From Folioceros fuciformis (lineage: Eukaryota): DNA of 37,335 bases. Both the position numbers and the translations under genes were made by a program. The notes under the pieces were generated by a model, which was not told the origin of the DNA, did no database searches, and was given only the letters and a program-made list of their open reading frames with translations. The stretch is from NCBI GenBank assembly GCA_049999805.1, contig JBNGIO010006013.1, positions 1 to 37,335 on the forward strand, written 5' to 3'. Shown here in pieces: positions 13,325-37,335 of this stretch. The number at the start of each line of letters is the position of its first letter. Position 1 is the stretch's first letter.

Positions 13325-13720
13325 CGTTCAGGGCCCGCCGGCGGAGGATGAGGCGCACGACAAACCATGGCAGGACGCCTAGGTATTGCGCATGACCGCA
13401 CTACCTTTGAACGGCAGGCAGTGAAGTGACGAGTTGACACGCGGTCTACCATGGCTGCCAAAGAGATTCTCATGCCTTCGGACCAAGTATTAAGCAAATA
13501 ATAGACATCATGCCCCTGGCCAATCTTAGCCGCTCTTCCCCCTGAGTTTGCGGTGGTGCTCTGCTTTATCCCTTCCTGATGGCATTCCGCTGTCAAGATG
13601 CTCTGCACTCACGTCTGATGCTCTCAGACATTGCGCACGGAACGACATTGCGATTCAAAATGGTCATCTCGTGCTCGCGAGCCTCTGTCCATTTGCGGTT
13701 TCCCCACGCCAGGGCGTCGG

Positions 13721-15124: not shown

Positions 15125-18100
15125 CTAGAACGTGTTCCCTAATGCTAATTGGAGCCCCATTCCGTGCGCATGCTGCAGGTGCTTTGCCTTGCTCAATGCT
15201 TTTGTGAGGACGTCCGCCGTCATCAGGTTCGTTGGACAGTACACCACCTGCACCAGTCTGTTTGCCACCTGCTCCCTAATAAAATGATGCTGCACCTCCA
15301 GGTGTTTGGTTCTAGCATAGAAGCGCGGGTTCTCTGAGAGTGCTATGGCACTTTGGTTGTCGCAACTCAAGCGCATTGACAGCTGCTGTGGAGAATCGAG
15401 CTCAGCCAAAGCTCCGACTGCCCAGACTGCCTCCTTGCAAGCCTCTGTCAAGGATTTGTACTCTGCCTCAGTTAAGGACAGAGCCACTGTTGGCTGGCAC
15501 TTGCTGCTCCAGGAGATGGCACCTCCGGCCAGAAGAAACACAAAACTTGAGATGCTACGGCAACTGTCCTGGTCCCTGGCCCAATCAGCATCGCTGAAGG
15601 CCGTGAGAGTAAGTGCCCCAGCGGAACCTCCTTCGTAGAGCAGTCCCCAATCCTCCGTTGCCTTGATGTATCTGAATAGCCGCCTCATTGCTTGCCAGTG
15701 AGCCATTGCTGGATTCGCGAGAAACTGTGAGAGCATGCCCACGGCAAATGCAAGATCTAGACGGCTTTCCAACATCAGGTACATGACGCTCCCACTGAGT
15801 GAAGCATATGGGAACTCTGCCATCAGGCGCGCCTCTTCAGCTGTCAACTCCGGCTCTCCAACTTGTGCTCTATATTTCACATTCTGTTCACGTGGTGTAG
15901 AGATAGGTTTGCAGCTCTGCATCTGGAACCTTGCCAGGATTTGACGAATATACTTTGCCTGATGCAAAAAGATCCTTCGTCTTCGTCTGTCACGACTGAT
16001 CTGCATGCCTAGACAGAATGCCAGAGGGCCTGCATCTGTCATTTTGAACTCTGATCTCAATTGACGTTTCAGCTCCTCTATCATTGCTACAGTGTTTGAC
16101 ATTATTATTATGTCATCGACATAAATGGCTAGAGCTAAAAAATTCCTTCTTCTTGCCCTTCATCGTGTAAACGTTAGAGTCAGCATGCGTAGGGGTGTAG
16201 CCATGTGATAGGAGGAAGTGGTGAATCCTAGAGAACCATGCTCGAGGACTTTGTTTCAGTCCGTATAGGGTCTTCCTCAGCTTGCAGACTTTCTGGTGAG
16301 TGCCCTCTTCTGCTGTCAGGCCAGGAGGACACTCCATGAAGATTTCCTCATTTAGCTCTCCATATAAAAATGCTGTAGTTACATCTAGCTATTCCAGTTC
16401 GTAGTCATGAATGGTGGATAGGGCCAAGAACAGTCTTAGAGTGCTCATTTTGACGACTGGACTGAAGGTGTCTGTATAGTCAACTCCTTGAACCTGAGAG
16501 TAGCCTTTTGCTACTACACGACCCTTATATCTAGCTATGCTGCCATCAGCATTCAACTTTATTTTAAATACCCATTTACTCCCAACAGCCTTCCTACCTA
16601 GAGGAAGTTCAGCTAGCTGCCAGGTTTGGTTCTCCTTAAGTGATGCTAGTTCGGATGCAATAGCTTGCTTCCAATGCTTTGCATCCGGGCATGATAGAGC
16701 CTCCTCATAGGTTTGAGGTTCAAACAACTCTGTAGCAGCTGCTAGACAGTATGTTAGATTTGACTTGGAATGTTTTACATCCTTGGGGTGCCTCCAGTCA
16801 TGGACCTTGTATAGGTCTATCTCGCCTGCGGTTGTACGAACATGGTGCTCCCTTGGTGGAACTGGAACACTAGCAGGCTTCTTCTTACGCTGCTGTGTGC
16901 CCGAGGTGGGCACATGCTGATAATTGGAAGGGGTAGTGAACAGCTCCCCAGGTGAGACCACTCCTTCTATGTCAAAGTCACCAAACACAATTGACTCAGT
17001 TTGCTCGCTGCTGACTGGCCGTGTTGGCTGTTGTATTGCTGGAGTTGCAGGTGCTTGCTGAGGGATCGGTGCTGCAACTGGTGCCCCAGCTTGTGGTGCA
17101 GGCACTGCAGTTGTAGGGCCTGCAGGCTTGAACAGTCCTTCTTCCATTTCATCATCTGACTTGGAAATCAAATCAAATGTAGCTGCTCCCACTGAGTCAT
17201 GTGACTCAACACCTTCTAAAAATATGACATCCCTGGAATGTGTAACAACCCTGGTACGTCGGTCGATTACTTTGTACCCTTTGATGCCATTCGTAAATCC
17301 GATGAATATGCAGGAGATTGATTTGGGCTCAAACTTCTTCCTAAGGGTCTTGTGAATGTGGACGTACACAGGTGACCCGAAAACCCGCATGTGTGAGACA
17401 TCAGGCTTGGTTCCTGTCCAAACCTCGTATGGAGTCTTGCCCTCTACAGTTGAGTGCTCAATGCGGTTCTGTATGTATGTGGCATACGCCACTGCTTCCA
17501 CCCAATAGCTTTTTGGTAAGTTTGCATATGCTAACATGCTAGATGCTGAGGTTTCCAATGCTTTGTTCTTATTTTTTGTGACTCCATTTTGCTGAGGAGT
17601 CCTAGCGTTGGTAAGCTGTCTAGCTATGCCATGCTGGCTGCAGAATGCTTGGAATTGACCTGAACTGTACTCGCATCCGTTATCCGTACGCAGGGCCTTC
17701 AAGGTCTGACCAGTCTGCTTCTCTGCCCAAGCCTTGTATTCAGTGAAGCATTCTAGGGTTGAGGACTTGAGCCTCATGTAGTATACCACAGTGAATCGAG
17801 AAAAGTCATCAATAAAGGTGATGTAATAGGCCTTGCCTCCTAGCGAAATAGGTAGAGGCCCACAAAGATCACTGTGTACCAGCTCGAGCACCCTGGTTGC
17901 TCTCTCAGCTGGTTCAGATGGGAAAGATGCACGGTGGTGCTTCCCAATCACGCACGCTTCACATACTCCGAAGTCAGACAAGATGTCTAACTGTAATCCA
18001 CGCACCAGGTTATTTTTATGCATTCTTACAAGTTTCTGGAAGTTGAGGTGTCCCAGTCTTAAATGCCACAAGTATGTTAGCGAGGGCTTAACCAAATGAG

Positions 18101-19440
18101 CTGATGATGTGGTAGAGTTTGCCTGGTCCTTCTTCACATCAAGGTGGTAAAGATCATCAGCCCATAGTCCTCCAGTGGCCATTAGCTTTCCCTCGGCAGT
18201 CTCCACAACACATTTGCGACCACCAAAACAGATGAAACAACCAGATTCATCGATTTTGCTCGCAGACACAAGATTCTTCGCCAGGCCTGGTACGTACAAG
18301 ACTTCAGGAATTTCCAGATGCTGATCTGGATCAAGATCCAGCTGAATGGTACCTTGTCCTTCGATTTTGTGAGTTGTATCATCTCCTAAGCATACGTATA
18401 TGTCCCCTTGAATTGGCTGCAGATTAGTGAAGTAGGAGTGATGGGGGCTCATGTGTTGGGAGGCCCCGGAATCTATATACCATGCATGTTCAGCCTTCAA
18501 TGCATAGCAGGTGACCACTAGTGCTGAAACACCCTTGTCATGTGCAGCTTCTTGTGATTCATGCTGGACACATGCTGTAAATGCCTTGGAGTACTTCTTC
18601 ATCGTTGCAGCCAGGTTGCCTCCTATGTGGCTGCTTCCTGACTCGTTCGCCAATCTTTTTCTGCAGACCTCCCATGTGCGGTTTGGGATTCCAAAGTAGC
18701 CACATGGTGGCTTAGCTCTGGCTGAATTTAATGAGGTTGGCCGAGTTGGGAAGCCTCGGCCACGGCCTCTCCCTCTAAAAGTTGGCTTGCCTCTGCCTCT
18801 GCCTCTTGCTGTACCAAATTTGTTGGTGAAGAGGGCTTTGTCCCTTGCATCTATGGAAGATGTGGCCATCTTCCTACGATTCTCCTCGGTAAGCATCATG
18901 GAGATTACACGGTTAACCGTGATAGAAGCTACGTTTTGAAGGGACTGGACAACATTTGTCCAACTTTTGGGCAACTGAGACAAGAGAATGACTGCCATCA
19001 CCTCCTCGTCAAGTTTAAAACCAAGTGCTGTGAACTTGGTCTACCAGCTTTTCCAAGTAAGTACAAATTCTGCAACATTATCCATTTCCGCCATCCTTAA
19101 TCCCACAAAAGATTTTAGAATGTGGGTTTTGAGCATAAGATCAACTGCATCATAGAGTTCTAACAGTTGCTTCCACAGTGCTGCTGCAGATGTTATAGAG
19201 CCCATCAAAGTGGCGATGTGAGAGCTCTTGACGCTCATGGTGAGCAAAGTTCTGGCTTGCTGATTAGCAGCCTTCCAGTCTGCAATTTCATCGGTCGACG
19301 CTGTGGCTGGCGGTTCAGGTTTAACAACTTCTGCTCCTACATACTCCCCAAGGTTCCTAGATTTTAATAATTCTTCCATTCTGAATTTCCATTGACTGAA
19401 GTTCTGACCATCAAACTTGTCCTCTTTGGCCAGGGCGACA
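15125..19440 (-). pseudogene. Copia gag-pol polyprotein, disrupted
   Basis: Motifs: gag FDGQNFSQWKFRME; protease WYIDSGAS; integrase LWHLRLGH/CEAC/HSDLCGP/RTDNG; RT YGLKQSPRAW and YVDD; RNase H FSDADWA/EAEY/CDNQSA. TAG stops at 19041 and 16389, and a frameshift in the T-run near 16140. Confidence 0.93.
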
Positions 19441-20327
19441 GGTGCTCAGGGCTATTGGCCTGCCATTGACCTGACTAGGGTGATTTAAGGAAGTGGTTGG
19501 AACCTGACTTTGCAGTAAGGGGAAACTGAAGGTGAACACCCTACTTCTAGCCACAACTCTATGCTAACATTTTCTGAGAAGCAAAATTCTGAGTGTGGTT
19601 GATGTAGGATATGAGCCGTACAGGAGTTTAGATAGCAAGAGCATGGGCAGATAGGTTGTTGTAGGAACAGCGATTCTAACGACTCAAAGACTAAGGCTTG
19701 AATGCTGTTTGGATTTGTAGGTAAATTTATGATGAAGGTTGAGGAGGTAGACATAGCTACTTAAAGGTAAATATCTGAGATATCTACTAGACTCCAATCA
19801 TACTCTTCTGTAGGATGGACGCCCTGAACCATATTTGTCGCCATTAGTTCCAGAATGATGCACAGCCTGATCTAAACTTGTTTCCATCTATTTCCAGGTG
19901 CAAGCGATTCTTGGTAGTTCCTCTCACACCGGCGCTCATACTCTGTGATGCTCGCCAGCCTTAGCGCACGTCTGGCCAGGCGCTCTCTTTTCTACAAGCC
20001 AGGCATGATGCACCAAAGGTTGCACTACATTGCTCCTGGAGTGCATTTGTGTGCAGGTTTTAGTGTTCCATACTTGGCTGATCTGCAAAAGAGAGGTCAG
20101 CCTGGTCGCTGCGCTCCAAGAAGAAAGATAAAATATGACGTTGCTTTCAATCCTAGTGTCTGGGAGAGCAGTTTGCACAAAGCATCTCCCAAAACTGCTC
20201 CCGGACCGCTACTGGCGCGCCTCCTGACCAAAAATCGTTGATCAAGAACACAACTTCTCCATACTCCGTGAAAGAATATAGATCTTGTGCGTGCGGCGCG
20301 ACTGCAGGCAGGTCACGTCACCGTGAA

Positions 20328-22259: not shown

Positions 22260-23870
22260 ATAGAAGGCTACCCACAACTTCACTATTGGGCCTCCTCTAG
22301 AGTTGAAGGGCAATCATCCATGGATATCTTCTCACTAGATGCGATGGGAGTTGAGACAGGCTTGGCATCCTTCAATTTAAATCTTTCGAGCAACTGATCA
22401 ACATAGTGTTCTTGATATATGAAGGATGAGTTGTTTGCAAGGTTGAGTTCAAACTGCACTCCGAGGGCAAATCGAAGGGGTCCCATGTCAAATACTTCGT
22501 ACTCCTTTGACAGCAGCTTTTTGCTTCTTGTATTGTAGCAAGGTTGTTCCCAAAGATAAAGTTGTCATCAACATATAGGGTGATGATGACAAGCTTGCCT
22601 TGTTCTTACAGGACATAAACGCTGGTATTAGATGGTAGTGAGGTGAAGCTGCATTTCTATCAAATGGCAGCGAGGTGAAGCCGCATTTCTTCAAGTACAA
22701 GTCGACCGTCTCGTTCCACACTTGTGCTTATTGCTTTAAGCCGTATACAGACTTGAGGAGCTTGCATACTTTGGAGTTCTCATTGATGAAGCCTAGCGAT
22801 TGTAGCATATAGATGTCTTCATGTAGAGTGCCGTATAAAAATGTTGTTTTAACATCTACTTGGTGTATATGCAAGTGATGATGAGCTGTACAGGCTAGCA
22901 GTATTTGGATTGTGGTTGCTTTAACCATAGGACTGAAGAGTTTATTCTCTTCATAATCAAAGCCGAGTACCTGGGAAACCACGAGCTACCAATTTGGCCT
23001 TATACTTGGATACTATACTATCTAGATTGAGCTTCCTGCAAAGAGTCTACTTGCAGAATATAGGCTTTTTACCAGCAGGTAAGTCTATGAGCTTCTACGT
23101 TTTATTGGCAGTTAGAGAGTTGCACTATGACTTGAGTGTTGCGGTCCATTGAGGTGTATTAAGTGCCTCTTGGATGTTGGCATGGACATCTTGCATCTCT
23201 ATTGCAAAGAGAGCGTGATAAAGGGCAAGCTGAACTGGATCATTATCAAGGGCTTGTGCTGGTGGTAGCACATCTTCAAGTGGAATGGTCGTATGACAAG
23301 AAAATGACTCTCTAGGAACAAAAGGTGGATTCCTCCATAGGTGACTTGGTGGTTGATTGCATGTAGAACGCCTTAGAGGTTTGGGTTCTAGAACAGGTAC
23401 GGGCTCTAATTTTGGATTGAGAGGTGTAATTGGTTGTGAAGGAGGTGGTACCTGAGGTTGTACTTGTGCGTGTGGTAGTGCTTGAATGACCTACTGAGGA
23501 CGAGGCTGGACTGGCTGTTGGGTTGCTGGTTGTTGTAGCTGCAACTGGATTTCCTCTTGAGCTTGGAGCTTGTCTTCATCATAGAGTGTTTTCCCCCTCA
23601 AGGTCGAGAGGGGAATCCGAGTGAAGGAAATTTGGCATGCTAGAGGTAGGAAGAGGAAACGAGAGGGAAGCTAGGTAGGAATTAAGTAGCAAAGATTCAT
23701 GGAAATGAGCTCTATGGGAAAGAATTACCTCATGGGTGATAGGGTCCAAGAGGTGATAGGCCTTGGATAGGTCCGGGTACCCGATAAAGAGGAGTTTTCT
23801 ACCCTTATCGTCCCACTTCTTCCGGTTCACATTAGGGATATGAGCAAATGCGGGGCTACCAAATATTGGT
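22260..23870 (-). mobile_element. Second, older Ty1/copia remnant (integrase C-terminal region plus RT), no LTRs seen
   Basis: Peptides: IFGSPAFAHIP..RKKWDDKGRKLLFIGY; GFDYEE..FSPMVKATTIQILL; QVDVKTTFLYGTLHEDIYM; VCKLLKSVYGLKQ; LGVQF..YQEHYVDQLLERFKLKDAKPVSTP. Many stops and frameshifts. Confidence 0.88.
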
Positions 23871-24960
23871 GTGCTGTCTTCAGCGGCCCTGCTGTTTGGA
23901 GGGTTGTCTGCCCCTAGGCATAAGGTGTTTTTGGAGGCCATTCGAGCGAAGGCCATGAAGGAGATACCGGGAAAGTGGAGCGAGGTGCCTCATGTGCAAC
24001 GAAAGGTTCTATGCGAATCTATGTGGCAGGAGTTCCCAGACCTCTCCATCAAGATAATGGTTTCGAGGTATTTCAGCCAGTACACCAGTAGTCGAAACTC
24101 CCGATATGTGGAAGCGGCCAACACTTGTGCGATGGAGGAGAAGTGAGTCGGGAGGCCGCGATCACAGCAATTCCAGCCACCGATGGCTGATAACAAGGTA
24201 TGGCAAGACATCCAAACATGGGCCCGTGTTGAGCTCATGCAGCACGACAATTTTTGCCTTCAAAGGGACAACTCGCTGCAAAGGCATGCTTGGAAAAGGC
24301 CGATGGTGAGGGGCCTAATGACTTTGGTAGATGCAGGTGCGGCAAGAAAGGATGGATTTTCAAATTTCAGCAACAGCATGGAAGAGACCTAACTACAAAA
24401 GAAGTGGAATTTGGAGCTCTACGCCCACTGAGTGAAATATATGAGTTGTGGAATGTGCAAAGGAAAGGTATGTCTGTCAGTGCATTCCTTTCTGCTATGA
24501 AAGCCTAGAAGGTAGGCAACAACAGCATCGCACGAAGTTTGAAACTGAGAACCCAGACCAGTCTCTTGGGAACATGGTTGATGACTAGCCAAGAGAGGAC
24601 CAAGGTATACAAGCTACAACCCCACCCCCCTCCCCCCTCCTCCTTGACCCAAATTTTATGCATCGCTGCAATCGATGGGTGTAGAAGCTGTTTGCATGTT
24701 CTCATGCCCACCTACAATAGGAAGAACTAATGAGGACGTCACTAACCATGCAAATGTTGCACGTAGGGAGGCTGAGGATGCTATCGAAGACCTGGGCCTC
24801 CATAGAAATTCGCTTGTGATCCCACCCCTCCATATGAACTATCCGCAGACCCCACAAGAAGCACGTAAGTGGCATTGGATTGCTCAGCAAGGAAGAGTAC
24901 CTAAATGGTTTCCGCATAAGCCCTCTCCGTCCCACTTGAGGGGGTGCCTAAAAGCTTAGT
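23871..24960 (+). mobile_element. Degenerate coding remnant, possibly a CACTA/DNA-transposon accessory ORF
   Basis: Broken ORFs (KWSEVPHVQRKVL..EFP; GKKG..KFQQQHGRDLTTKEV) abut the copia fragment at a sharp junction. The family assignment is a weak resemblance only. Confidence 0.3.
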
Positions 24961-25340
24961 AGCTAGCCCTCCATGACAAGGCCACTCCACTAGCTCTCTT
25001 CACCATTTGGAGGCAGAGTTTCTCCATGTCTGAGTTTGGGGACTCTTCCAATTTTCCGGCATTGCGCCGGAGGTCATGTGACTCGCGGGCTAGAGATGCC
25101 AGCAGGCACTGAAAGGGAAGTAGAGTACCAGCTGAACATGAGGATGTGTGACGGAAGCCATCGCGAGGGGAACGATGAGCTCGGGATTAGGAGGGAGGGG
25201 GAGTGTTGCGACATAGCGCAATGCAGGAGTTGGTGGATCCGAGCTAGGGAACGTTTCACAAAAATGCCAGGAAAATAATGCTTAAGTTTCAATTTTCACC
25301 GTTAGGCGGGTTACATTGTACAGCATCAAGTGCTCAGCAA

Positions 25341-25614
25341 TTACACAAACACATTTGTAAAAATACCTTGATCCATTGATGCAAATTCATTTGCTCTAGT
25401 GGTTTCTTTAAGTATAATGCCATTTGCAACGTCATGTTTTCGATGGCTAATGAGTGTAGGTTTCTTCTCGCCCGATGTAGTTACACGAACACACTTGTAA
25501 AAATACCTTGATCCATGGATGCAAATTCATTCGCTCTGGTGGTTTCTTTTAAGTATAATGCCATTTGCAACGTCATGTTTTCGATGGCTAATGAGTGTAG
25601 GTTTCTTCTCGCCC
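25341..25614. repeat. Direct tandem duplication of ~133 bp
   Basis: 25341-25473 and 25481-25614 differ by only a few substitutions and one indel. Confidence 0.92.
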
Positions 25615-27067
25615 CCATCGTAGGTAGGGATTAGCCTGGTACACCGCTCTTGGATGCTTGCAAATGGATACCCAATGGGCATTAAGGTTGGCACGTGTGT
25701 CTGGGTAGGCCCCGCACGCCAGCTACATGTACCTTTATGTTCTTGCCCGTGGCCATAGCATGGTAAGTCATGCAGCATCGAACGGGTGGCCACAACCGTT
25801 TTCAACACGGGACATGAGAAACCTGGACCAGTAGTTATTATTTATTTACAAGGTACTAATAATATTTGTTTACTACTAACGTGCGCAATGCTAAAAAAAA
25901 CGTGAGTTGAAACTGGAGTTTGAAAGCGAGCGTTTTCAATGAAACCTTGTCTCCCAGGTATGGAAAGCCGGGTATGGAATTGGAAAGCCGGGTATAGAAT
26001 TGCAACAAACTGATGTTGCTATGTCGCATATGTGCATATGAAGTAAAGGACATCGTGTCGCGCGTCCGCACGGGTGTGACCGTATGTGTCGATGGGAAAG
26101 CCCCTTGGATACCACCCGAGAGGAATAGGTTTGTATTGTCGATTCGTCGACGTGGTTGTCACGAGACTGGGCTTACAGTCTGCCTTGTCGAGACCGCGCA
26201 CTCTCACAACCCACCCACAACTATCTTGAAACTCTTCTGTCAGCAGGCACTCTCAATCTCTCTCTCCTTCCGAGTCATGAGAAGACGTCGTATCTTGTGG
26301 CTTCCCAGTAGAGGTGGATGCCCACAGGACATGACTCATTGTGCACATCCTAAGTGGGCAGCGCTAATCTACACAATGGTCAGCACCAACGGGGAGCAGC
26401 TCGTGGACAGGGAAGGAAGGGAAGGTAGCGCATATGCGATCCATGCACACGGCGTTCAGACTGGCGATGAGGGCTTGGATTGGATCAGCCTCTTTCACCA
26501 CCGACCGATGCGTATTTCTCAAGTATTGTTGGCTGTCAGAATGAAGTGAACTTGACGACTGAACGTTCGTCTGTATTTGCAGGGCCCTGCACGTTGAGTT
26601 CGCATCAGCTTTCGATGTTGATGCGGAGCAGGTAAGAGACTTGGCGGGAGCGAGAGGTCTCTTGCTGCCTTTTGAACAGATTCCCGAACTTTTGACAACT
26701 TAGTAGTTGAGAAGGACAGTCGCCGACCAATCGAGGGACTTCTGAGAAGGACCTTCAAAGGATAACCCAGATTACTTCAAGCAGTACACGAACTTCAGTT
26801 TATCCTACCAACACTGAGATGCACCCACGTAGCCATCATGCAAGATTTCCTCTCTATCCTGCAGGATTTCCTCTCTATTTTTATTTGGGAGAAGGAAGGA
26901 AGTATTCCAATCGAGGTCCTGCTATGGAAATATTGACTACTTCCACTGCCCTACAGCAGTAACGTTAGATAACTTGCAGCAATTCCAGGCCATAGACTGA
27001 ACCGCTGGCTGAAGAGAGTCTCTGCAAAACTCATCCGCCCAATATGTCGGCTCAACCACCTAGTCCA

Positions 27068-30000
27068 CTACTTGCCACTTATCTTCCAGCCGTGCTGAGC
27101 AGCAACACGTTCAAATGCCATCTTCGCCTCTGCAGCCGAGTAGGACTGACCTATTGCAGCCCTGTCAATCTGACCTCCCCCTTCAATGAGGGAATTAACA
27201 ATCTGCACTAATACCATCTCAAAAGAAAAAGCAGGATTCCATCCACTCTCTGTAAGGAGCTCCATGCAGATACTTCCACCAACTGTTACGTGTCCTGTGT
27301 GGAAAGCAAATCTGGGATAAACTACACGAATGAAAGGCGGTTGAAATGGAAACCGACCTGGAAAGGTTACTTCGAGCAAAACATGAGCCTCCTCAACCTC
27401 CCTGCGTCCACCCCAATCACAGAGGTCCTCGTGTAAAGGATAGGCCTTGAAGAGTTGTTTGCCCAGACGGACATGCCAAGTATAAAAATTAGACTCGTCA
27501 GGAATCACTACGGAGATGTTACTCAGAAAAGTCGCCGCTGCACCTCCAGATGAAGACGCCTTTAACTTCTCTTTGTGAATCTCTTTGAGGATGTTCCTGT
27601 GTTCTTTAATGATGGCTTGAGTTGCCATTACAGTTCCCTCGCTTGCTCGCCACTTTTTCTGGTCTTCCACACTTTTTGCAAGCTGTGCTCTTCCGTTGAG
27701 CTTGTTGAGTGAATTTTCATCTGTAAGGCAAATGTCTTCCTCCAAAATCTTTAGGGCAGTTGAACGTTGCTGTTCCAGCTGTGACATGTGCTTTTTACGA
27801 TCAGCCAGCTTGAGATCTTGCAAATGAACAAGCAAGTCCACATCTGCCACTCCACGTGCTCCGTGTGATAGGAGCAGGTTGAGCTTACTTGGAGCTACCG
27901 AAGTGATTCCTGTAATTCCTGGGATACCGATTGTTTCACTCAGTAAGGTGGTGCCTGTAATCTTGTGTCCCATCATCGTCTTCCTGTCGCCAGGTCTGCA
28001 GACGAGCAAGTATCGTACTATTACGTTATCTTGCAATGTTGGCGGCACAACATGTATGTTCTCCGAGCATTGTGAAGAGCTCCCAATCACCACTTCACAA
28101 ATAGCCATCACACAGAAAGGCCACTCCAAGGTTCCCCCAAATTTCAATAGTTGAGTTCTATTTTCGAACTTATTAGCCATCGAATAAGAAAAGGAGAACT
28201 CGAAGGTATCAGCTAGATAAATACCCTGTCCAAATGAATCACCAGATGACATGTAGACTGTCCTGCTCATAGATCTGAGCCCGTTCCTCAGTATCGAATA
28301 CCAGTTACAGAGGCTGCTCCCATGAAAGGCAAAGAAAGATCCCCCAGCCGTCTGTCGAAGCTTCTGAAAAGTTTCTTCCTTCTCTGGGGAGTCATGAACC
28401 ACGACAAATTGGTGAGTCACCACGTCACGATCAAAAGGAAGCATTTCAGACTTCTCTAAGCTACGAATGGATACCCTGTTCGTTGACAAAATGAATCTCA
28501 GCAATTCATAGGACACATTGAGATCCTTGAACATAAGATTCTTCACGTACTTGCCATATGAGATATGGTCTGTACATTGAGAATATGCAAGCGTCTGTCT
28601 CAAAGGGACATGCGCTTCATACGTAGAATATGCAAGCTTCCGCCTCAAAGAGACTTCATCTCTGCACTCCCTCAAAGTGTCAAGAGGTGGGAGTGATACA
28701 ATGATTTGAGCCAATAACTGAAGGTTTTTGTTGGGAGTGGAGAACTGAAGGTTTTTGTTGGGAGTGAGAGTGAACAACTGAAGGTTATTGTTTGGAGTCC
28801 ATTGCTGAAATGAACCCCATGGACGCCATGTCTGAGTAGCTGGTCCTGCATGTTTCCTGTCTCCGTCACTTTGTCGCGTCTTTAAATTAGCATCCATGTC
28901 GGTGAACCAACCAGCACGTCCCCTTAGCCCGTTACCGTCTAAGAAGGAGTTTGGGAATGGCTCAAACACATCACGCCCTGAGACAGCAGCAGCATGTGCT
29001 AGGGCCACTTCCAGCTCGACCACTTGTGGGGATCCCAAAATCTCATGAAATATTGCCGAACCTTGTCCAAGTTCTTCAAATTTGTAGAGGCAAAACTCCT
29101 TTGAACAAGTTCGAAGTCTCCACATGGATGAAGGAAGTGAACACCAGCAGACGGGGCACCAGGTAGGCAGTGCCCTCAACTGGGATCCAATGAAATAGAG
29201 AAGACCAATGAAAGGGTTGGCCATGTCTGCACAGAAATCTAGACACTTGATCATTTGCTCGTTTTGCAGTGGCTCGCCTCTAGCCCCAGTACTTGTTCTG
29301 TAGGCACGATGAGATAGAAAGACTGTCACCAGCTCAGGCAGCAGCACGTCTGTTGCATATCCTTGTGCAGCCTCTGAACCACCCGTATCGTCCTTGTAAA
29401 GCTTGGAGAACTCCTTGTCAACGTAGGAGAAGGGCTTGGTATCGCTTTCACGTTTGTCGGTGGTCCACTGAGGCAACTGTCTGACCAGCACCTGTTGTGC
29501 TAGGAGAGGCTGGGACCGGCTCCGAATGAGATCACAATCAACTTGGAGTAAGCGCCTGTCGAACTGTAGTGAAATATTCAAGGGATCATCAAACGACAGT
29601 CCTAGAGCAGCAGCTACAGCTGCGTCATTAAATAATCCAGGCACCTGCAGCCGCAGATGCACGCTTTCTGCATGAGCGGACATGGAAACCACACAGAACT
29701 TGAGCATGCCCTCATCCATTTCGAATGGAGGCTGGGTTCCTGCTTGGCCTGGACTAGGCCCGTGTGAACCTGCGCGAACATCATCACATATCCGTCGGGC
29801 TTCCCGTGCTGCAGGTGCATAACCTCCACGGTTGGTGTCCAATTCCTCACACTCGAGGATGGGTAAAAGGTCCACAGAGGGGCCCTTCACGGCAAAGTCA
29901 TGTGCATCGTCGTCCTCACCTGGCGCACACCCGCTATCCTCTGAAACATAATCATCGCTACTATAGTCACTCCCAGTTTCACTTCCAAATTGGGATCCAC

Positions 30001-30424
30001 TGCTGGCCCCCTGGATGTCCCTCAACCCTTCCTCGACACTCGGTCTCGGGCTCGGTCTCTTGCCTGATGAGATCACCATCATTTTGAGAAACATATCCAG
30101 CACCTGATGAACAGCCCCTGCCGGGTCCGACCGACACGGAATTCGCTCCAATTTCTCGTTCAGCTGCGTCACGAATCCTTCCTCAGCAGAATCATCAGGG
30201 CTCATAGCGACGAAGCTGCCTTCCCCTTCGTCTCGTCCATCGGAGAAGTGAGACGGCAGAATCAAATGAAACAGCATATCCGCGACGAAGAAGATCAAAG
30301 CCGATTCCGTGGCCTCGGAAAGCCTGAAACCATGCGACGCTGCCTCCTTTGCATGTTGACGCACCCACGACGACCAGACGGCAAAATTGCCTTGCGCTGT
30401 CCCCAGGACTCCACTACCAACCAT
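27068..30424 (-). CDS. Intronless PARP6/8/16-like mono-ADP-ribosyltransferase fused to a C-terminal UBE2Q-like ubiquitin-conjugating (UBC) domain, ~1118 aa from first ATG
   Basis: Cys cluster CPVC..TCSKEFC (PARP6/8-like). ART motifs AFHGSSLCNWYSILRNGL, GQGIYLA, MAICEVV and ENIHVV. UBC reads LLEVTFPGRFPFQPPFIRVVYP..GHVTVGGSICMELLTESGWNPAFS..EAKMAFERVAAQHGW. First ATG is at 30424; the ORF track starts at GTG 30616. Confidence 0.9.
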   Translation of the reverse strand: MVGSGVLGTAQGNFAVWSSWVRQHAKEAASHGFRLSEATESALIFFVADMLFHLILPSHFSDGRDEGEGSFVAMSPDDSAEEGFVTQLNEKLERIPCRSDPAGAVHQVLDMFLKMMVISSGKRPSPRPSVEEGLRDIQGASSGSQFGSETGSDYSSDDYVSEDSGCAPGEDDDAHDFAVKGPSVDLLPILECEELDTNRGGYAPAAREARRICDDVRAGSHGPSPGQAGTQPPFEMDEGMLKFCVVSMSAHAESVHLRLQVPGLFNDAAVAAALGLSFDDPLNISLQFDRRLLQVDCDLIRSRSQPLLAQQVLVRQLPQWTTDKRESDTKPFSYVDKEFSKLYKDDTGGSEAAQGYATDVLLPELVTVFLSHRAYRTSTGARGEPLQNEQMIKCLDFCADMANPFIGLLYFIGSQLRALPTWCPVCWCSLPSSMWRLRTCSKEFCLYKFEELGQGSAIFHEILGSPQVVELEVALAHAAAVSGRDVFEPFPNSFLDGNGLRGRAGWFTDMDANLKTRQSDGDRKHAGPATQTWRPWGSFQQWTPNNNLQLFTLTPNKNLQFSTPNKNLQLLAQIIVSLPPLDTLRECRDEVSLRRKLAYSTYEAHVPLRQTLAYSQCTDHISYGKYVKNLMFKDLNVSYELLRFILSTNRVSIRSLEKSEMLPFDRDVVTHQFVVVHDSPEKEETFQKLRQTAGGSFFAFHGSSLCNWYSILRNGLRSMSRTVYMSSGDSFGQGIYLADTFEFSFSYSMANKFENRTQLLKFGGTLEWPFCVMAICEVVIGSSSQCSENIHVVPPTLQDNVIVRYLLVCRPGDRKTMMGHKITGTTLLSETIGIPGITGITSVAPSKLNLLLSHGARGVADVDLLVHLQDLKLADRKKHMSQLEQQRSTALKILEEDICLTDENSLNKLNGRAQLAKSVEDQKKWRASEGTVMATQAIIKEHRNILKEIHKEKLKASSSGGAAATFLSNISVVIPDESNFYTWHVRLGKQLFKAYPLHEDLCDWGGRREVEEAHVLLEVTFPGRFPFQPPFIRVVYPRFAFHTGHVTVGGSICMELLTESGWNPAFSFEMVLVQIVNSLIEGGGQIDRAAIGQSYSAAEAKMAFERVAAQHGWKISGK

Positions 30425-31295
30425 AGCGACTGACTCGCCCTGCTGGCTGCGCGCAACGCTGCGCAATCCAGCTCTCCTCTTGATTCTGTTTGCCCTCTCC
30501 TCTCGATCAAATTCCTTCACCTGGACACCTACCTCGGGGTATTCCCTCCAGCTGCAGCTGCAGAGCTGGAGATTGACCGTCCGACCAGGCCCCCGAATGG
30601 CAAGCACGCTGCTCACAAACGCGCGCGTCCGACAGCCAATCGAACAAATTCCGCTACATGCGAGTCAGCAGAGTATGCAGATACCACCAAATAGGGAAGA
30701 AAAAAAGAAAGGAAGGAAAGAACGGAGGAGTAATCCAAAGCAACAAGTGCACGACGCTAGATTAGTTCTCCAAATCTGGAAAAGTGAACACGCACCTAGA
30801 GAGGGCAGCGTCAGCGTCCACCCCAGAGTAGAGAAGCGGAGACGTCGTGTCGGACGAGCTTTCAGACGACTTAAGACAATTTTTGTGGTTAAGAATATGG
30901 AGGGTCCGTTAGAAATGTTATCAACGGCTCCACAAAACAGCTGCACACGACAGCTCAAAATGGGAAAACACTCAGCTCTCATCTCCAGAACATGAAAATA
31001 GTGATACATAACTAGCCGTCAGGACCACACCATACCCTCTCCTGCATGAAGGCATACGTGTACCGCGCACACTTGTACTGTACATACCTGCTTACTATGC
31101 AATACAAAAACGAGAGATCGTTGGAAGGAGGAGAGGAGGCGACAGAGCAGCCAGCTGTCTGCGGGTGGATGCAGCCAAGTCACAAGTCGGTGCTGGTCAC
31201 GATCGCCATGCAATGTCGATGAAGCTGACAAAAGATGCGTGAAGCGTCCCCACGCTCCGACACTGTGAACCAGCATCCCACTAGACTGACCCGGA

Positions 31296-31330
31296 GCCGG
31301 GTCGGGGTCGGGGTCGGGGTCGGGATCGGA
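31296..31330. repeat. (GGGTCG)n hexamer microsatellite
   Basis: About 5 imperfect copies in the intergenic region between the divergent PARP-UBC and LanC-like genes. Confidence 0.8.
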
Positions 31331-31855
31331 TGTTTATCCTCTTGGCCTTGACGCCAGTGTTGCCCCCTGCCGTAGTAGTTGTACGGAGTTTTTGTTGTTG
31401 CTGCTGCTGTTGCGGCTTTGAACTTGGCGGAGTCGCTGCTGGGTCGCCATTGGTGTTGCGTGTGCCGCCGCACCGTTCACCGCCTTCGGCACACCACCAA
31501 AGTGCAATTGCAGTTGCAATTACGCAGTGTCGGGGTGAGCCAGTGCTTTTTGGTTGCAAGTTGGGATTAGGCTGGGCAATCGGAATTAGGTAAGGCTGTT
31601 GGCTCTTTCTCACAAGCCTTGGGAATGGGGGCCAAGGGTGGTGGTAAGAAGGTGCTGCTGTCTCGGCTAGGCTCAATAATTGGCAGCATTGTGGGACACT
31701 GTCCGGAAGAACAGGAGCGTTGCGGGTCCCAAGGTGGATGCATATCTTGAAGCCTGAGGCCTCCTGCCCGGGGCGATAGAGCTTGTGCGCGTCTGCTGTG
31801 CTGCCGAAGCCGCTTCCGCTGGGCTTGGCGCCGGACCCATTTCAGCCTGCCCGCA

Positions 31856-34002
31856 ATGTCGGACCGCTATTTCTTCAACGACTTGCAAGATTACGACCCC
31901 AATCTCGCGCAGCGGGATGCGGTGGTCGGCCTGTCTAAGGAGGAGCAGGAGGACTTGCTGATGCTGCGGACCGTGGAGCCTATTGTGTGCCCGCCCATCA
32001 TGAACCAGACTGCGTTTCGAGACGGCATTGCGCCCACTGCGGACATGTTTCTCAAGGCCGGCCTCGCGCTCAAGGAGAAGGTTCGCAGTCTCCTATTGTC
32101 CTCACGTCCCACTGCTGCCGGGTCAGGAGTCGAGCATAGCGCCCTTGCCTTGCCTTTCCTTTCCCTGCCTTGCCTTATCGAGCAACCCGTAGATGCTTCA
32201 GACTAGGCTGTGGGAACATGTTGGCATGGGAATCCTGAACACTCTGCACACGAGGGATTCCTCTATTTAGACTAGGGTTTCTTTTGGGAATTAATTCTTG
32301 TGCTCTTGCATTGCTGTCTTCTTCTCCTTGCCCTGCCAGAGTTTTGCTTTCCAAATTTGGAGCCTGGCGGAGGCTTTCTAGGACAGCGTAACATAAAGTG
32401 CAGATTGTGTTCTTCCCAGATTAAGCAAGCTACGTGGTCACGTACCGTCGGTCGTGTGGGTGATCCTACCATGTACACTGGAGTTCTCGGGACTGCCTAC
32501 CTGTGCTGGAAAGCGTACAAGATGGCTGGGCATGAACCGGATCTTGCCTTGTGCACAGAAATTGTGGACTGCTGTACTGCTTCTGCGAGGACTATGAAGC
32601 AGTAAGTTGTCTAATTCTGGCAACAAGTCTGTGGTGCCGGATTTTTGCCTGTCCTTTCGAATGTCTGTCTGTCTTTCAGCGTGGAAGGATCAAGGTTTGG
32701 CTACTTGGGGTATGCAGGCATGTTACATTCCTCTGTGGTCAACCAGGAATCTACGCTCTTGGAGCAGCGGCAGCAGCTTGCAGAAATGACAAAGAACGGA
32801 TACGATTTTACTTGGACCTGTTCAACGAGGTGAGCTCGCTTGCTCCAGCTCTTGTCAGTCCTCGAGAACCTAAGGTTATCATGCAAGCAAACTATTCCAC
32901 AGCGTATGTTTCTCTTGGGGGTTTCAAGATTTTGCTCCGAGGCAAGTCAAAGATCATCTCTCGTTTTGGCAGGTTGCCAATCAACGAGCGATGGCAGCAG
33001 GTCCTTCGGAAGGGGGCCTGGGGCTCCCTTATGAGCTTCTCTATGGCCGAGCAGGCTTTCTTTATGCATGCCTTTTCATCAACAAATATGTAGGGGAAGA
33101 TACTATACCCTGGAGCGTGACGGTCAGTTTCTCTACCCTCGTTTTATTGAAAATCTCGTTGTTGCATGTGTCACGGCGGGCTTCTTTGAAATCTTTGCTC
33201 CTGCGCCAACGATTTGGACTCGACTGCTTGACAGGGACCCGTAGTGGATGCTATTCTACAAGCAGGACGAGCTGGTGCTTCACAAAATCACAAACGGTGC
33301 CCCCTCATGTTTCAGTGGCATGGCACTCGGTACTGGGGAGCAGCTCATGGTCTGGCTGGGATTATCAATGTCCTACTCTACTTCCCGCTGGCGCCAGAGG
33401 ATGCAGAGGATGTGAAAGCCACGCTGCGATATATGATGAACAACCGCTTCTTTCCCAGTGGCAACTATCCATCTAGCGAGGGGAATAACAGGGATAGACT
33501 TGTGCATTGGTGTCATGGTGCCCCCGGAATCGGATTGACTCTATGCAAGGCGGCGGAGGTGACCACCTTCAAACTCTGTTTAACTTGAAGGTGCGTGGCA
33601 GTCCAGTTTGTCCGGATGTACAATGTTGTACTGATGTGAAGTGGTGCTCTTCGTGGTCAGGTTTTCGCCAAGGATCAGGACTTCCTACAAGCCGCCATCG
33701 ATGCTGGTGACGTGGTGTGGAACAGGGGCCTTCTGCGGCGGATCGGTCTGTGCCATGGTGTGTCTGGCAACACGTATGTGTTTCTAGCTTTGCATCGGTT
33801 AACAGAGGAGGAGCGACATAAGCATCGGGCCAGGGCATTTGCAGGCTTCATACATGACCATGCACATCAGTACATGGCATCCGGTGCCATGCACGGGGGA
33901 GATCATCCCGAGTCCTTGTTCGAAGGTCTTGCCGGAACAGCTTGCTTATACCTGGACCTGTCTCAAATTGAAAATGCTAGATTTCCTGGATTTGAGTTGT
34001 AA
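31856..34002 (+). CDS. LanC-like protein (GCR2/GCL1 family), spliced. Exons approx. 31856-32080, 32420-32601, 32718-32829, 32973-33122, 33235-33558, 33661-34002
   Basis: Peptides: MYTGVLGTAYL, VTFLCGQPGIYALGA, GPSEGGLGLPYELLYGRAG, YWGAAHGLAG, LVHWCHGAPG, GLCHGVSGN, SLFEGLAG, RFPGFEL*. Zn-ligand WCHG and CHG motifs are intact. Introns are GT-AG and in frame. Confidence 0.95.
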
Positions 34003-34499
34003 GTCGCTGCCAACAGCAGCTGTCTGAATTGACCGTCCCTTGAAATGAGACGTATCTCCTGGACGGGTTCCACCGCCATGTACAGTATTATGTCTGAACA
34101 TGCAATGCATGTGCCAAGGCTTTGTCAAACGCTTATGAGCACTACATCTCTGATAAACAATGACGTCCGGTGTGATTACGTTCGTTGCACTGGATTTCAA
34201 GCTGCGTAGGAGCTCCCGATCTGGATATCGATTCTTCAGCTTCACTCCAAGCTCGTTAGGTGTGATGTAATCTGTAGGTGATACCGGACACAAGCGTCTC
34301 TAGCGAGGTCGGTGCAGAACGCAAAGAGGGGCAGCAACGCGCAAAGGAGGAGGTCCTGGAGCAGAAGTGTGCGAAGAGAAGGATCACCATCTGCATAAAT
34401 TCTCAGCTAGCTGCTCCATCTCAAACAGCAATCAGCTATCAAACGGCACTGATCTCCAGTTCTCGCGTGCGTAGGATCTGCGGGGACGTCGACACGGAG

Positions 34500-34841
34500 A
34501 TGGCAATCGGAACGGGACGGCCCAGCGGCGTGATTCTCTCGCTGGTCCTCATGGTTGTCTTCGTCAATCGGGCAGCAAGCCAGTCTGACGAGCCCTGTGA
34601 TGAATTCTTACCTATTGCTGTGACTCGGCTCGCGCAATGCATGACCACATCCCTCCCCAATCCAGACCTTCGGGCTTGCTGCGACCAGGTGAGCGATTAC
34701 CTGATGCAACACACCAACGACAACTGCAACACATACGACATTCCCGGATGTGAGTCGTACTGCTCGGAGAACGCCCGGTTCACCGACGCTCCGGAGAAAG
34801 CAGATGCTCTTGGCGGTCCCGCTGCGACAAAGCTTCCTTGA
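34500..34841 (+). CDS. Small secreted cysteine-rich protein (prolamin/nsLTP-superfamily-like), 113 aa
   Basis: Hydrophobic signal GVILSLVLMVVFVNRAAS, then C-x13-C-x12-CC-x14-C-x7-C-x3-C. Similar to the ORF at 36353. Confidence 0.65.
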   Translation: MAIGTGRPSGVILSLVLMVVFVNRAASQSDEPCDEFLPIAVTRLAQCMTTSLPNPDLRACCDQVSDYLMQHTNDNCNTYDIPGCESYCSENARFTDAPEKADALGGPAATKLP

Positions 34842-36352
34842 TCCTCTCTCACTACATGTATCGAGCTCAGCATGGCCGTGAATTCTCCTAGGTAGCTAGC
34901 GATTGTGAAGGATTTGCAGTTGTACCTCTCGATACTTGATCGCCACACGTTGATAGCACTAGCGTTGTTTACCGCACCTGCCTCCGAGCTTGTCTTGAAG
35001 CAATGCCATGTTCACTTTACAAGACATGTGCTGCAATTTCCATCTGTTTGCTAAGAGCTTGGTCTCGCGTGCATCTGTGCCTCTCTCGCGTCCATGTGGT
35101 CTACATTTCTCACGGGGTCTGTGCTTCAATCATCAAGCTCATCGTAGCAGCAGCGATCGTGAAAGTGCATGCGATGACTCGGTGTCAAAGCCCATTTCGT
35201 GTTTCTGTGTCGATCATTGTTAGACAGTGAATCTTGCTCGACATTGAGCATGACGGCATCATCCCAAGAGCGTGGCTTCCCGAGGCACGTCATGCCTCAC
35301 AACTATTCAGCGGAACATCTGGCAGTGAAAATATATATGGTGACCAAATTTTATAGAAAATCAGTTGACATCGTCTTGTCTCCAGGGACGACTGAACCTG
35401 CACCACACGGACGCGGGGACAAGGAGATGAGAGCACGGGATGGGATCTGGGATAGAGCAGGGTGCTCGGGCGGTGTTGATGCTTCCCCACAAGCATGGGC
35501 CATGCATGGATAGGTGACATTACCCTGACCTCATATCATGGCTCAAAGTTCCCGCAGGCCGTGGTTGGTTACAGCATGTAACACACACACAGAGCGGCCT
35601 GCCCAGCGAACTAACAGTCGCTCACCCACATCGTTCGCCCGTCCCTTTCCACTGCAACAGCAACAGCGCGCCGCTCTCTTGGGCAAGAATGGGAAGATGC
35701 CTCACAGATGACACGCCACAAGAGTTGTTGAAGCCCTCTTTTCTGAAGTTGTGTGACGCAGCCGAAACCCCTGATCAGAAGAGCAAGCCTCGTTTTCTTG
35801 CATTTTGGGTGAATATGTGTCTGATTGTACAAATGTAAAGAAGATGCTGACATGGCCGCAGGGGAATGCCTTCGCTGGTGGGAGGAGCACGGCATTTTCT
35901 TCTTCTACGCTAGGAATGACCGCCAAAATAGGTAGTTGCGGGGCTCCCAAACCCTCCTAATAAGCACGAACCCATGCAACGCAGGCCGGGATCGGCCCAC
36001 CCAGAGAGCGAGTATGCACTGGCCATGGGACGATGCATCCGGATCCACAGGGATTGGGGTTGCTAGGGTAGAAGACCTGTGTTACCCATGGACCACGTAC
36101 GGGTTCTGATTTGTCAATGGTTCGTGCTTACAAGATTGACACACCAAGATTGCAGCGGGCAGCATGAAATTTATGGGTAGAAGTTCGGGTGACCTCAGGT
36201 TCGTCATACAAGGAAGCGAGTACTGCATGGACATAAAACCACCTGCCTGCCGAGCTAGCTGCATAGTCCACACTGCAGCTGCAGCCTTGCATCCGAGTCT
36301 CCGAGTCGGCAACCGTGGCATGCCCAGCAGTGCGCTTCTGAGTTTCAAGGCC

Positions 36353-36670
36353 ATGGCTGCACCTCAGCGATGGAATGGAAAGGCCGCCCGATTCGGAGCC
36401 ATAGCGCTCCTCCTGGTGACCAATTTCTTCTACTGCGCCAATACTGATGGCTTTGGAGCCCCGACATGTGCGGACATCTTAACGGCCGGCGCGGGTAGAC
36501 TTCAGTATTGCGAGAACTCTGCACCCGCTCCCGCTTTTGTGCAATGCTGCGAGCAGGTAGGGAGCTGGATGATGGCACAGGCCCAGTTGGGGGGCTGCCC
36601 ACAGCCGATCAACAGTTGCCTTTTCGCGGAATGTCGAACGATTGACATGTGCCAGGTCGGCGCGCCCTAA
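36353..36670 (+). CDS. Small secreted cysteine-rich protein (prolamin/nsLTP-superfamily-like), 105 aa
   Basis: Good start context (gccATGG) and signal FGAIALLLVTNFF, then C-x13-C-x11-CC-x15-C-x6-C-x4-C-x5-C. Confidence 0.65.
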   Translation: MAAPQRWNGKAARFGAIALLLVTNFFYCANTDGFGAPTCADILTAGAGRLQYCENSAPAPAFVQCCEQVGSWMMAQAQLGGCPQPINSCLFAECRTIDMCQVGAP

Positions 36671-37335
36671 GGCCCACGCCGATCCACGGTCCACGGCTTT
36701 GAAAGGGACATCTTCGATTCTGTATCTAGACGTGACCTTTATCTTTTGTGAAATGTTGGCTCGCAAACTTGCACAATTGTAACACAGCCCTTGCTGCCAG
36801 TTGTAGTCTTCTTGGATGTTCTTCACCTTTGTCAATGATCGAGTGAGATTTTGTGTGTGCAATTCGCGGAACATCCGGTCCAAGTACGATCCCCTTCCTG
36901 CCGAGATGAGAGCAATCTAATCTTCATCCTGCAGCTACTGTCACCAATTGATGCATCTGTGCAGTTTGCATTTCCATTTGCATTATGTATCTCGCGGAAC
37001 TGCCCTGCCCGCCTAATTGCTTGCTTTTCACAAACTTGCGGATTTGGGACAAAGCCTCCCTTTCCTTTCTCGGTGAGCAGGTGTAACGGAATGGGGAACC
37101 CTTAACGTGACGGGAACCTTAGACGCAGGGTGTACCGTGTCGAGTGGTAGTTCCGAACTACTCATCTTCCAGTTCAAGTTGAGCGCCATCCTTATCCCGG
37201 ATGATGTATAAAAGAAGTGTGAAGACTTGCGGAAAACTTGCCTTCCTCGATTTTTCAGCCAACGTACGAGTGAGCTCCCGAGGTGTGAAGGCCATGGCAG
37301 GGGATAGAACGAATTGCACGCGGGTAGCCCGATTC

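Follow-up and report, generated by a model that had tools for sequence, protein, structure and literature searches.

The window analysed here, the 37,335-nucleotide contig JBNGIO010006013.1 of the hornwort Folioceros fuciformis, carries on its minus strand an open reading frame (ORF; 27068..30424) in which an ADP-ribosyltransferase (ART) domain resembling those of PARP6 and PARP8 is followed by a ubiquitin-conjugating enzyme (E2) domain. This raises the questions of whether the two enzymes belong to one protein, to which family this protein belongs, and what a chain carrying both might do. Judged from its sequence, the protein is a streptophyte PARP6/8-UBE2Q fusion and an orthologue of a known moss protein, with both active sites under apparent constraint. 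The architecture is already known from fungi and moss; what is new is its range, which further takes in streptophyte algae, a liverwort, ferns, a conifer, ciliates, and giant viruses.

The coding sequence of 1118 amino acids (27068..30424, minus strand), delimited by the ORF scan and by contig cover, is intron-free. Its frame is stop-free from 30664 down to 27068 with the first in-frame methionine at 30424, approximately where the homologues also start, and the chance of 1118 stop-free codons at the local base composition is about 6e-26. One public sequencing run, which is not recorded as RNA, carries 98% of the sampled words. As the contigs of this run on 24000-37335 show six GT-AG joints (five of them in a LanC-like neighbour) and a gene-biased cover (22 of 30 bins, the uncovered ones serving only as a sign of this bias), the run behaves like spliced RNA. 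A gap-free contig without differences (26581-29242) holds a four-cysteine (C4) motif, the ART, and the E2 together, in agreement with the originally predicted single chain, and a second contig (29216-30626; 0 gaps, 0 differences) overlaps the first by just 27 bases. The expression data stem from one run of one study, and a contig alone does not prove a single transcript; on this basis, the fusion gene is probably expressed. A split into two genes or a mis-assembly was rejected on account of the one frame and the gap-free contig cover. The 202 contig-covered bases upstream of the start (30425..30626, minus strand) contain no ATG on that strand and probably represent the 5' untranslated region, although the contigs cannot fix the true transcript start at the 30626 edge. 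In genome searches with the ART part and with the E2 part, the fusion locus was the sole close match each time, and a second E2 match in the same genome was a canonical E2; by these counts, which are lower bounds, the gene is single-copy. A GT-AG joint on the plus strand (26422-26581) is present in the contig over the 3' end as well, and a convergent spliced transcript with an ORF at 26253-26632 (plus strand), for which the Pfam scan gave no family, probably overlaps the 3' untranslated region of the fusion gene.

The assignment of the two catalytic domains was borne out by the domain search, in which Pfam PARP (PF00644; residues 681-782, E 7.6e-13) and UQ_con (residues 1017-1079, E 3.9e-8) both scored above their curated cut-offs. 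The residues of the ART triad, which had been read from short motifs, are H701 in FHGS (codon 28322-28324), Y736 in GIYLA (28217-28219), and, in place of the glutamate, I790 in ENIHVV (28055-28057; all minus strand), and the latter aligns with the isoleucine of DIWVV in salmonid PARP8. The cysteine cluster preceding the ART was likewise confirmed: C423-x2-C426-x13-C440-x4-C445 (29090..29158, minus strand) fits the zinc-finger motif CX2CX9-19CX4C defined for this position (Perina 2014, PMC4245714). We built an AlphaFold2 model of the full protein from a 46-row alignment (mean predicted local distance difference test, pLDDT, 77.9; pTM 0.65). Residues 450-812 of this model (27989..29077, minus strand) matched residues 3-274 of PARP16 (6w65) with Z 20.1 and a root-mean-square deviation (rmsd) of 2.7 over 220 aligned residues, which covers both a helical extension, formerly the PfamB_2311 region, and the ART. 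Taken together, the C4 motif, the helical extension, the H-Y-I triad, and the PARP8 alignment characterize the ART as PARP6/8-like, as had been proposed.

The C-terminal domain (residues 930-1113; 27086..27637, minus strand) is a UBE2Q-type E2 with C1053 (27266-27268), the cysteine of the predicted GSICMELL motif, as the putative catalytic residue. Residues 930-1111, including the C-terminal helix, matched UBE2Q2 (1zuo) with Z 22.3, rmsd 1.8, 162 aligned residues, and 35% identity; UBE2Q1 followed with Z 21.0 and the next-best E2 with only Z 13.9, and UBE2Q2 and UBE2Q1 were also the best sequence matches among solved structures (E 9e-23 and 6e-21). The HPN motif of canonical E2s is replaced by an aligned HTGH, and HPN or HPC occurs within the last 170 residues in just one of 148 aligned family members. 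HPN is likewise missing from human UBE2Q1/2. According to PMC10971424, these enzymes transfer ubiquitin to Ser, Thr, glycerol, and glucose but show little activity towards Lys, the assay being described as containing the activating enzyme E1 but no ubiquitin ligase (E3). The same study reports that UBE2Q1 needs Tyr343, His409, and Trp414, with only Tyr343Phe remaining active; its main text contains no mention of ADP-ribose. Counting from the catalytic cysteine in the alignment with 2qgx, Tyr343 corresponds to H1045 of the hornwort protein and His409 (His164 of 2qgx) to H1111, while W1113 follows near the C-terminus.

In front of these domains, the model contains a confidently folded, putative RWD/E2-fold domain (residues 10-119; 30068..30397), an acidic linker predicted to be disordered from pLDDT values below 50 and from its sequence (residues 122-198; 29831..30061), and an alpha/beta region that is probably a split RWD, as its secondary structure suggests (residues 203-417; 29174..29818; all minus strand). 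When residues 1-455 were folded alone, the top rows for residues 12-119 were mainly RWD and E2 folds, with Knl1 as the best (Z 8.0, a value within the range of common arrangements; rmsd 3.1, 93 aligned residues), and two E2-fold rows spanned residues 203-417 at weak Z scores of 5.2-6.4; in the ESM Atlas, residues 200-815 lay closest to chordate PARP6/PARP8 clusters (0.95). These structure matches are suggestive only, and Foldseek gave nothing at E <= 0.001 for the N-terminal model. As a split RWD plus an N-terminal RWD have been described for PARP6/8 (PMC10450202), the modelled front end may be RWD-like in the same way. Residues 503-562 and 910-928 are disordered as well. The former insertion, within the helical extension, ends with an in-frame triplication, TPNNNLQ / TPNKNLQ / TPNKNLQ (28708..28809, minus strand; three copies of 42 nucleotides with spacings of 27 and 33), and its modelled lack of strands, at pLDDT below 50, does not prove the absence of a beta-barrel. 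A long linker helix (residues 864-910; 27695..27835, minus strand) is predicted between ART and E2.

To judge constraint on the two catalytic centres, we used 148 aligned rows, 46 of them eukaryote-type (hornwort protein included) and 102 virus-like; as all were chosen for carrying both domains, conservation is inflated by this choice. H701, C1053, and W1113 were kept in 148 of 148 rows, Y736 in 147, H1111 in 146, and H1045 in 141. The cysteines C423, C426, C440, and C445 were kept in 148, 146, 147, and 147 rows, respectively, and all ten key residues occurred together in 136. Position 790 was Ile in 112 rows, Val in 30, and Glu in none. The absence of this glutamate is held to restrict clade-6 enzymes to mono-ADP-ribosylation (PMC13720257). 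The hornwort protein deviates at two of 75 conserved columns, which equals the median of the 148 rows.

The closest described relative is the Physcomitrium patens PARP6/8-UBCc protein (P0015), which is listed in PMC4245714 without an assay. It has the same order of C4, helical extension, ART, and UBCc, the H-Y-I triad, and the catalytic cysteine, belongs to the same land-plant clade, and is 34% identical over residues 350-1118, whereas the hornwort protein belongs to another plant lineage and differs by Asp729 in the donor loop and by the short triplication. The fungal proteins known as clade 6A, PARP-Ubc, or fPARP2 share the probably RWD-like front, C4 motif, helical extension, glutamate-less ART, and a UBE2Q-subfamily E2 with the cysteine, a histidine at C-8, and a terminal HGW. 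However, their best local alignments reach only 24-27% identity, a Tyr or Phe is found close to the third triad residue of their ARTs, where the hornwort protein has Ile, and they are characterized by an FPE N-terminal domain, in whose place our model has an RWD-like front end at low Z, and by a beta-barrel insertion in the helical extension, which was not predicted in the low-pLDDT insertion of our model. Human PARP6 and PARP8 show the same C4-helical extension-ART layout, probably preceded by RWD in both cases, and the same H-Y-I triad, but the animal proteins carry no E2; identity to salmonid PARP8 is 27% over C4-ART. PARP16 shares the fold of helical extension and ART but has a transmembrane tail that is missing here. 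Human UBE2Q1/2 resemble the hornwort protein in the lack of HPN, the His409 equivalent, and, probably, an N-terminal RWD or RWD-like domain, and differ in that, in the hornwort protein, the whole C4-helical extension-ART module separates the E2 from the RWD-like part. Proteins of Fadolivirus (QKF94397.1, labelled in its record as 'bifunctional polyADP-ribose polymerase and ubiquitin-conjugating enzyme E2 domain protein'), Indivirus, and Faunusvirus show the C4-helical extension-ART-E2 order with the same catalytic residues, although these giant-virus proteins have only about 570 amino acids, a short front, a short linker, and a separate ART clade.

How widely this fusion occurs has been described differently. 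Clade 6A was defined as 'fungal proteins exclusively', with a UBCc domain (Citarelli 2010, PMC2964712), and Perina 2014, which names the C4 motif, adds moss and Chlamydomonas fusions; the virus passage of that paper covers four PARPs, none of the fusion kind. A July 2026 preprint (10.64898/2026.07.25.740670) places the E2 in the UBE2Q subfamily and describes the fusion as restricted to fungi, a statement that is contradicted by Perina 2014 and by the present matches; PMC13507078 mentions Af-PARP2 by name only, and PMC8383183 offered nothing on the subject. Our literature search, which did not extend to supplements, where some may be listed, found no account of a fern, hornwort, ciliate, or giant-virus fusion.

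When residues 350-1118 were searched, 71 matches were obtained among 8000 scored candidates. Both domains were present in 57 of these, in 56 of them in the order ART-E2, and 53 of the 56 also had the C4 region. The matches include bryophytes (the liverwort Calypogeia, Physcomitrium, Ceratodon), ferns (Adiantum, Ceratopteris, Pteridium), the conifer Cryptomeria, streptophyte algae (Klebsormidium, Mesotaenium, Closterium, and, via a profile-free search of representatives, Coleochaete), the ciliates Euplotes and Protocruzia, and the fungi Fusarium and Pleurotus. As the cluster ranked first for our protein in the ESM Atlas was mostly Nucleocytoviricota, we scanned viral contigs. The 97 pattern matches fell into 18 loci, ten of which (L004, L005, L007, L008, L011-L014, L016, L020) carried ART and E2 in one ORF according to BLAST; these comprise 11 ORFs, with two copies in L014, and Pfam confirmed both domains in 8 of 8 scanned. 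The loci are AT-rich and gene-dense, and some adjoin giant-virus genes; a minor capsid protein P9 domain (L012) and PriCT-2 (L004) were seen among the neighbours. Three further loci (L006, L009, L010) encode stand-alone E2s of the same type as in the fusion. One viral protein used as query yielded 381 matches, and the Fadolivirus, Indivirus, and Faunusvirus proteins are among the 120 listed. Most of the short matches of about 570 residues are labelled "virus-like" and are not taxonomically assigned. All 121 stored proteins of the viral query set carry both domains, and in the virus-like form both centres are kept while the median gap between ART and E2 is 28 residues, in comparison to 96 in eukaryotes, where the linker is long and variable (80-271 residues).

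The fusion had been expected to occur chiefly in fungi and in a few plants without seeds, a view that this survey overturns, as many giant viruses, a conifer, ciliates, and streptophyte algae also carry it. The accompanying claim that angiosperms lack it stands as far as names reach: neither a fusion nor a clade-6 ART from an angiosperm is among the named matches (20 clusters looked up by name), and as many matches are nameless, absence is not proven. A stand-alone E2 labelled as barley cDNA (P0261) was rejected as an angiosperm member because it groups with non-plant rows. In Gonium, an E2 precedes a different PARP (P0069); this is a separate fusion that we excluded from the ART tree, and the Chlamydomonas case of Perina 2014 may be of the same kind. 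ART-E2 proteins without the C4 module also exist (P0060, P0061, and P0066), and from their sequences such other fusions point to repeated joining of ART and E2 domains.

With respect to origin, quick LG+G4 trees were calculated from the C4 and ART segments, without a true root. The first tree kept 85 of 95 rows, as nine were dropped as isoforms, near-duplicates, or unrelated PARPs and one was too short; four further long branches were removed for the approximately unbiased (AU) test, and a later tree was enlarged by 42 sequences from among the first 45 new representatives. The hornwort protein paired with one further protein, the liverwort sequence being sister to both (SH-aLRT 98), and all three fell within a 40-row clade that comprises every named streptophyte (SH-aLRT 99). 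The ciliate rows were placed next to the streptophytes, the fungal rows with animal PARP8, and the virus-like rows in a clade of their own. Forcing our protein together with three fungal-clade rows was rejected (p-AU 0.001), and a tree of 107 E2 rows gave the same land-plant placement (96), with its deep branches open and with stand-alone and fused E2s intermixed. The trees show vertical descent of the fusion within the streptophytes. A fungal origin and the membership in clade 6A, to which the original prediction had assigned the protein, were rejected on this land-plant nesting and the AU test, in line with the fungal-exclusive definition of that clade. A viral origin of the plant gene is not supported either, the virus-like rows forming their own clade in a tree without a reliable root; on the number of fusion origins and the direction of transfer between viruses and hosts, such quick unrooted trees are silent.

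What might the two enzymes do together? The reading that we favour, at about even probability, is that both are active and act in a coupled manner on one target, in a vertically inherited member of a clade-6 (PARP6/8-type) PARP-E2 family. The RWD/C4/acidic front end would bind a partner or the target, and the ART, whose motif is intact, would add a single ADP-ribose from NAD+ to the target or to itself; because Ile replaces the catalytic glutamate, it should be incapable of chain extension. Host E1 would charge C1053 with ubiquitin, and the E2, by analogy to human UBE2Q, which also lacks HPN, would discharge it nearby, probably independently of an E3. Since this E2 type resembles the hydroxyl-active UBE2Q enzymes, an ester of ubiquitin on a hydroxyl group, either of a target Ser/Thr or of the newly attached ADP-ribose, is the first product to seek, instead of the ADP-ribosylated ubiquitin that had been suggested. 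The net product would be a paired ADP-ribose and ubiquitin mark written by one chain. When residues 200-912 and residues 926-1118 were folded as separate chains in the presence of NAD, weak support for contact was obtained, with a docking score of 0.34 against 0.00 for the best control. The docking runs agree in at least 57% of the contacts with partner pLDDT of at least 79; the alignment was not used and no interface was given. Of the solved pairs, 51 of 78 attain the docking mark, as do 2 of the 108 mismatched ones; at 0.60 or under, however, it is attained by only 5 of the 78 solved pairs but by all 4 passing mismatches. An ART bound to an E2 is not described among the listed structure-match entries.

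A bolder form, which is contained in the favoured reading and which we regard as doubtful, is that the fusion esterifies ubiquitin onto a ribose hydroxyl of its own mono-ADP-ribose by means of the conserved histidines and without any E3. Ubiquitin esterified to protein-linked mono-ADP-ribose occurs in cells (PMC12000418), and this mark, produced by PARP and Deltex in MARUbylation (PMC12000418, PMC12687431), represents, as a candidate parallel in function only, the chemistry that the fusion might perform. The enzymes known to write it are Deltex E3s: they position the thioester of an E2 at the 3'-hydroxyl and contribute a His-Glu base (PMC12687431). The Deltex route relies on a separate RING-DTC E3 that also binds ADP-ribose; for the fusion protein, Pfam gave neither a RING nor a DTC domain at E <= 1. 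A Deltex-type gene with WWE, WWE, RING, and DTC domains over several exons is present in the same genome (contig C6274, ~139070-140760, plus strand; L022 231-1919); one of its exons carries IHHKT and matches human DTX3L, and no description of a plant Deltex appeared among the papers listed by our literature search.

Several points weigh against the favoured reading. The correspondence with the UBE2Q1 triad is incomplete, as H1045 stands at the place of Tyr343, for which only Phe is reported to be tolerated, and W1113 lies at H+2, while Trp414 of UBE2Q1 lies at H+5 and the alignments with 2qgx and 1zuo stop at the His. A complete metazoan YHW triad is a weakened claim in this light, the resemblance by sequence being real but partial. 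Moreover, the listed matches of stand-alone UBE2Q-like E2s have the histidine at C-8 in 120 of 120 and the terminal HxW in 103 of 120 cases, so that these residues, rejected as a fusion-specific signature, mark the E2 subfamily. Asp729 of the donor loop is Ala in 135 of the 147 other rows. In Cryptomeria, the ART of the fusion has decayed (20 of 75 conserved columns changed) next to an intact E2, and ART-only relatives exist in Physcomitrium (a paralogue), Pinus, and Taxus, where two of three entries are marked partial (rows for conifers and moss: P0023, P0057, P0360-P0362, P0045); from these sequences, the fusion is apparently breaking up in conifers. The C6274 E3 could supply the ADP-ribose-ubiquitin link in trans. 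Finally, a 2026 review states that the function of the fungal form awaits experimental validation (PMC13720257), and, in keeping with the earlier view that this function is little studied, our literature search (supplements not included) found no activity report for any family member.

Part of this evidence favours a different arrangement, the most plausible of the alternatives though with a lesser probability, in which two active but chemically independent enzymes share one scaffold and the E2 works with an ordinary RING E3, for example with the Deltex-type E3 as link maker. The ART-only paralogues, the ART-decayed Cryptomeria protein, the stand-alone E2s of the same type, which are common in protists, the WWE-WWE-RING-DTC gene, and the long, variable eukaryotic linker would all fit such independence, but the co-retention of both centres across plants, ciliates, fungi, and the compact viral forms, together with the weak docking signal, speaks for coupling. 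Less likely is a regulatory role of the ART, by NAD+ sensing or by modifying the E2 or its ubiquitin, so that ADP-ribosylated ubiquitin or a switched E2 would result. The domains are adjacent, their linker is short in viral forms, and auto-modification is frequent in mono-ARTs (PARP10/14; PMC12687431); however, the product of Deltex, initially taken for ADP-ribosylated ubiquitin, proved to be ubiquitin on the 3'-hydroxyl of ADP-ribose (PMC12687431).

It is improbable that one half of the hornwort protein, most likely the ART, is inactive and that the protein is a large RWD-bearing UBE2Q-type E2. Both changed conserved columns, Ala to Asp at 729 and Ala to Ser at 730, are in the donor loop, the triplication lies beside the helical extension, and Cryptomeria provides a precedent for ART decay, but the number of changes is not above the median and H701, G702, Y736, Y747, and the four cysteines are intact. 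Least probable by far, and already largely refuted, is an artefact, be it two genes, a mis-assembly, a fungal or viral contaminant, or a recent transfer. The gene is intronless while its neighbours have introns, and the nearest clusters in the ESM Atlas bear viral and basidiomycete labels; against this stand the single frame, the contigs without differences, the plant neighbours (PPR-DYW, LanC-like, DUF707), and the ART and E2 trees, both of which place the protein with the liverwort protein inside the land plants, as well as the rejection of a grouping with fungi. For the originally suggested role in defence or stress, we found nothing in support; the presence in giant viruses only hints at a host-virus conflict.

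The remaining features of the window are those of a plant genome region with retroelement remains. A PPR-DYW gene with a terminal GRP lies at 10931-13327, and another copy, which is broken and terminates in DRP, at 7070-7909 (both minus strand); GRP-type DYW:KP proteins have been described for hornworts as U-to-C editors (PMC9478123), and the GRP ending would fit a hornwort-like host. A broken copia-type retrotransposon (15125-19445, minus strand) and further decayed retroelement-like fragments (~22283-24500) follow. The LanC-like gene, whose five GT-AG introns were seen as joints, is divergent from the fusion gene (~31860-34002, plus strand). Beyond it, two contig-covered, small Cys-rich ORFs with hydrophobic N-terminal stretches (~34500-34841 and 36350-36670, both plus strand) had no Pfam match and, by their sequences, look like related small secreted proteins. 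Protein kinase exons, CK2-alpha-like by eye (1-2200), and a DUF707 gene (~4300-5700) are located at the other end on the plus strand.

For the family, these data mean that the PARP-E2 fusion is far more widespread than the fungus-only claim implies, reaching across streptophytes, ciliates, and giant viruses. The hydroxyl ubiquitylation by UBE2Q and the occurrence of ubiquitin on ADP-ribose in cells provide a sharp and testable hypothesis for what its members do, and the viral form of about 570 residues together with moss genetics makes the family practical to study. A positive coupling result would hint at a joint role of the poorly understood human PARP6/8 and UBE2Q. If the E3-free esterification of ubiquitin onto ADP-ribose were true, the fusion would represent an ancient way of producing with a single chain a mark that until now has been ascribed to Deltex E3s, a route kept in streptophytes, ciliates, and fungi, acquired by giant viruses, and fading in conifers, which animals would have split into PARP6/8 and UBE2Q, maybe still functional partners.

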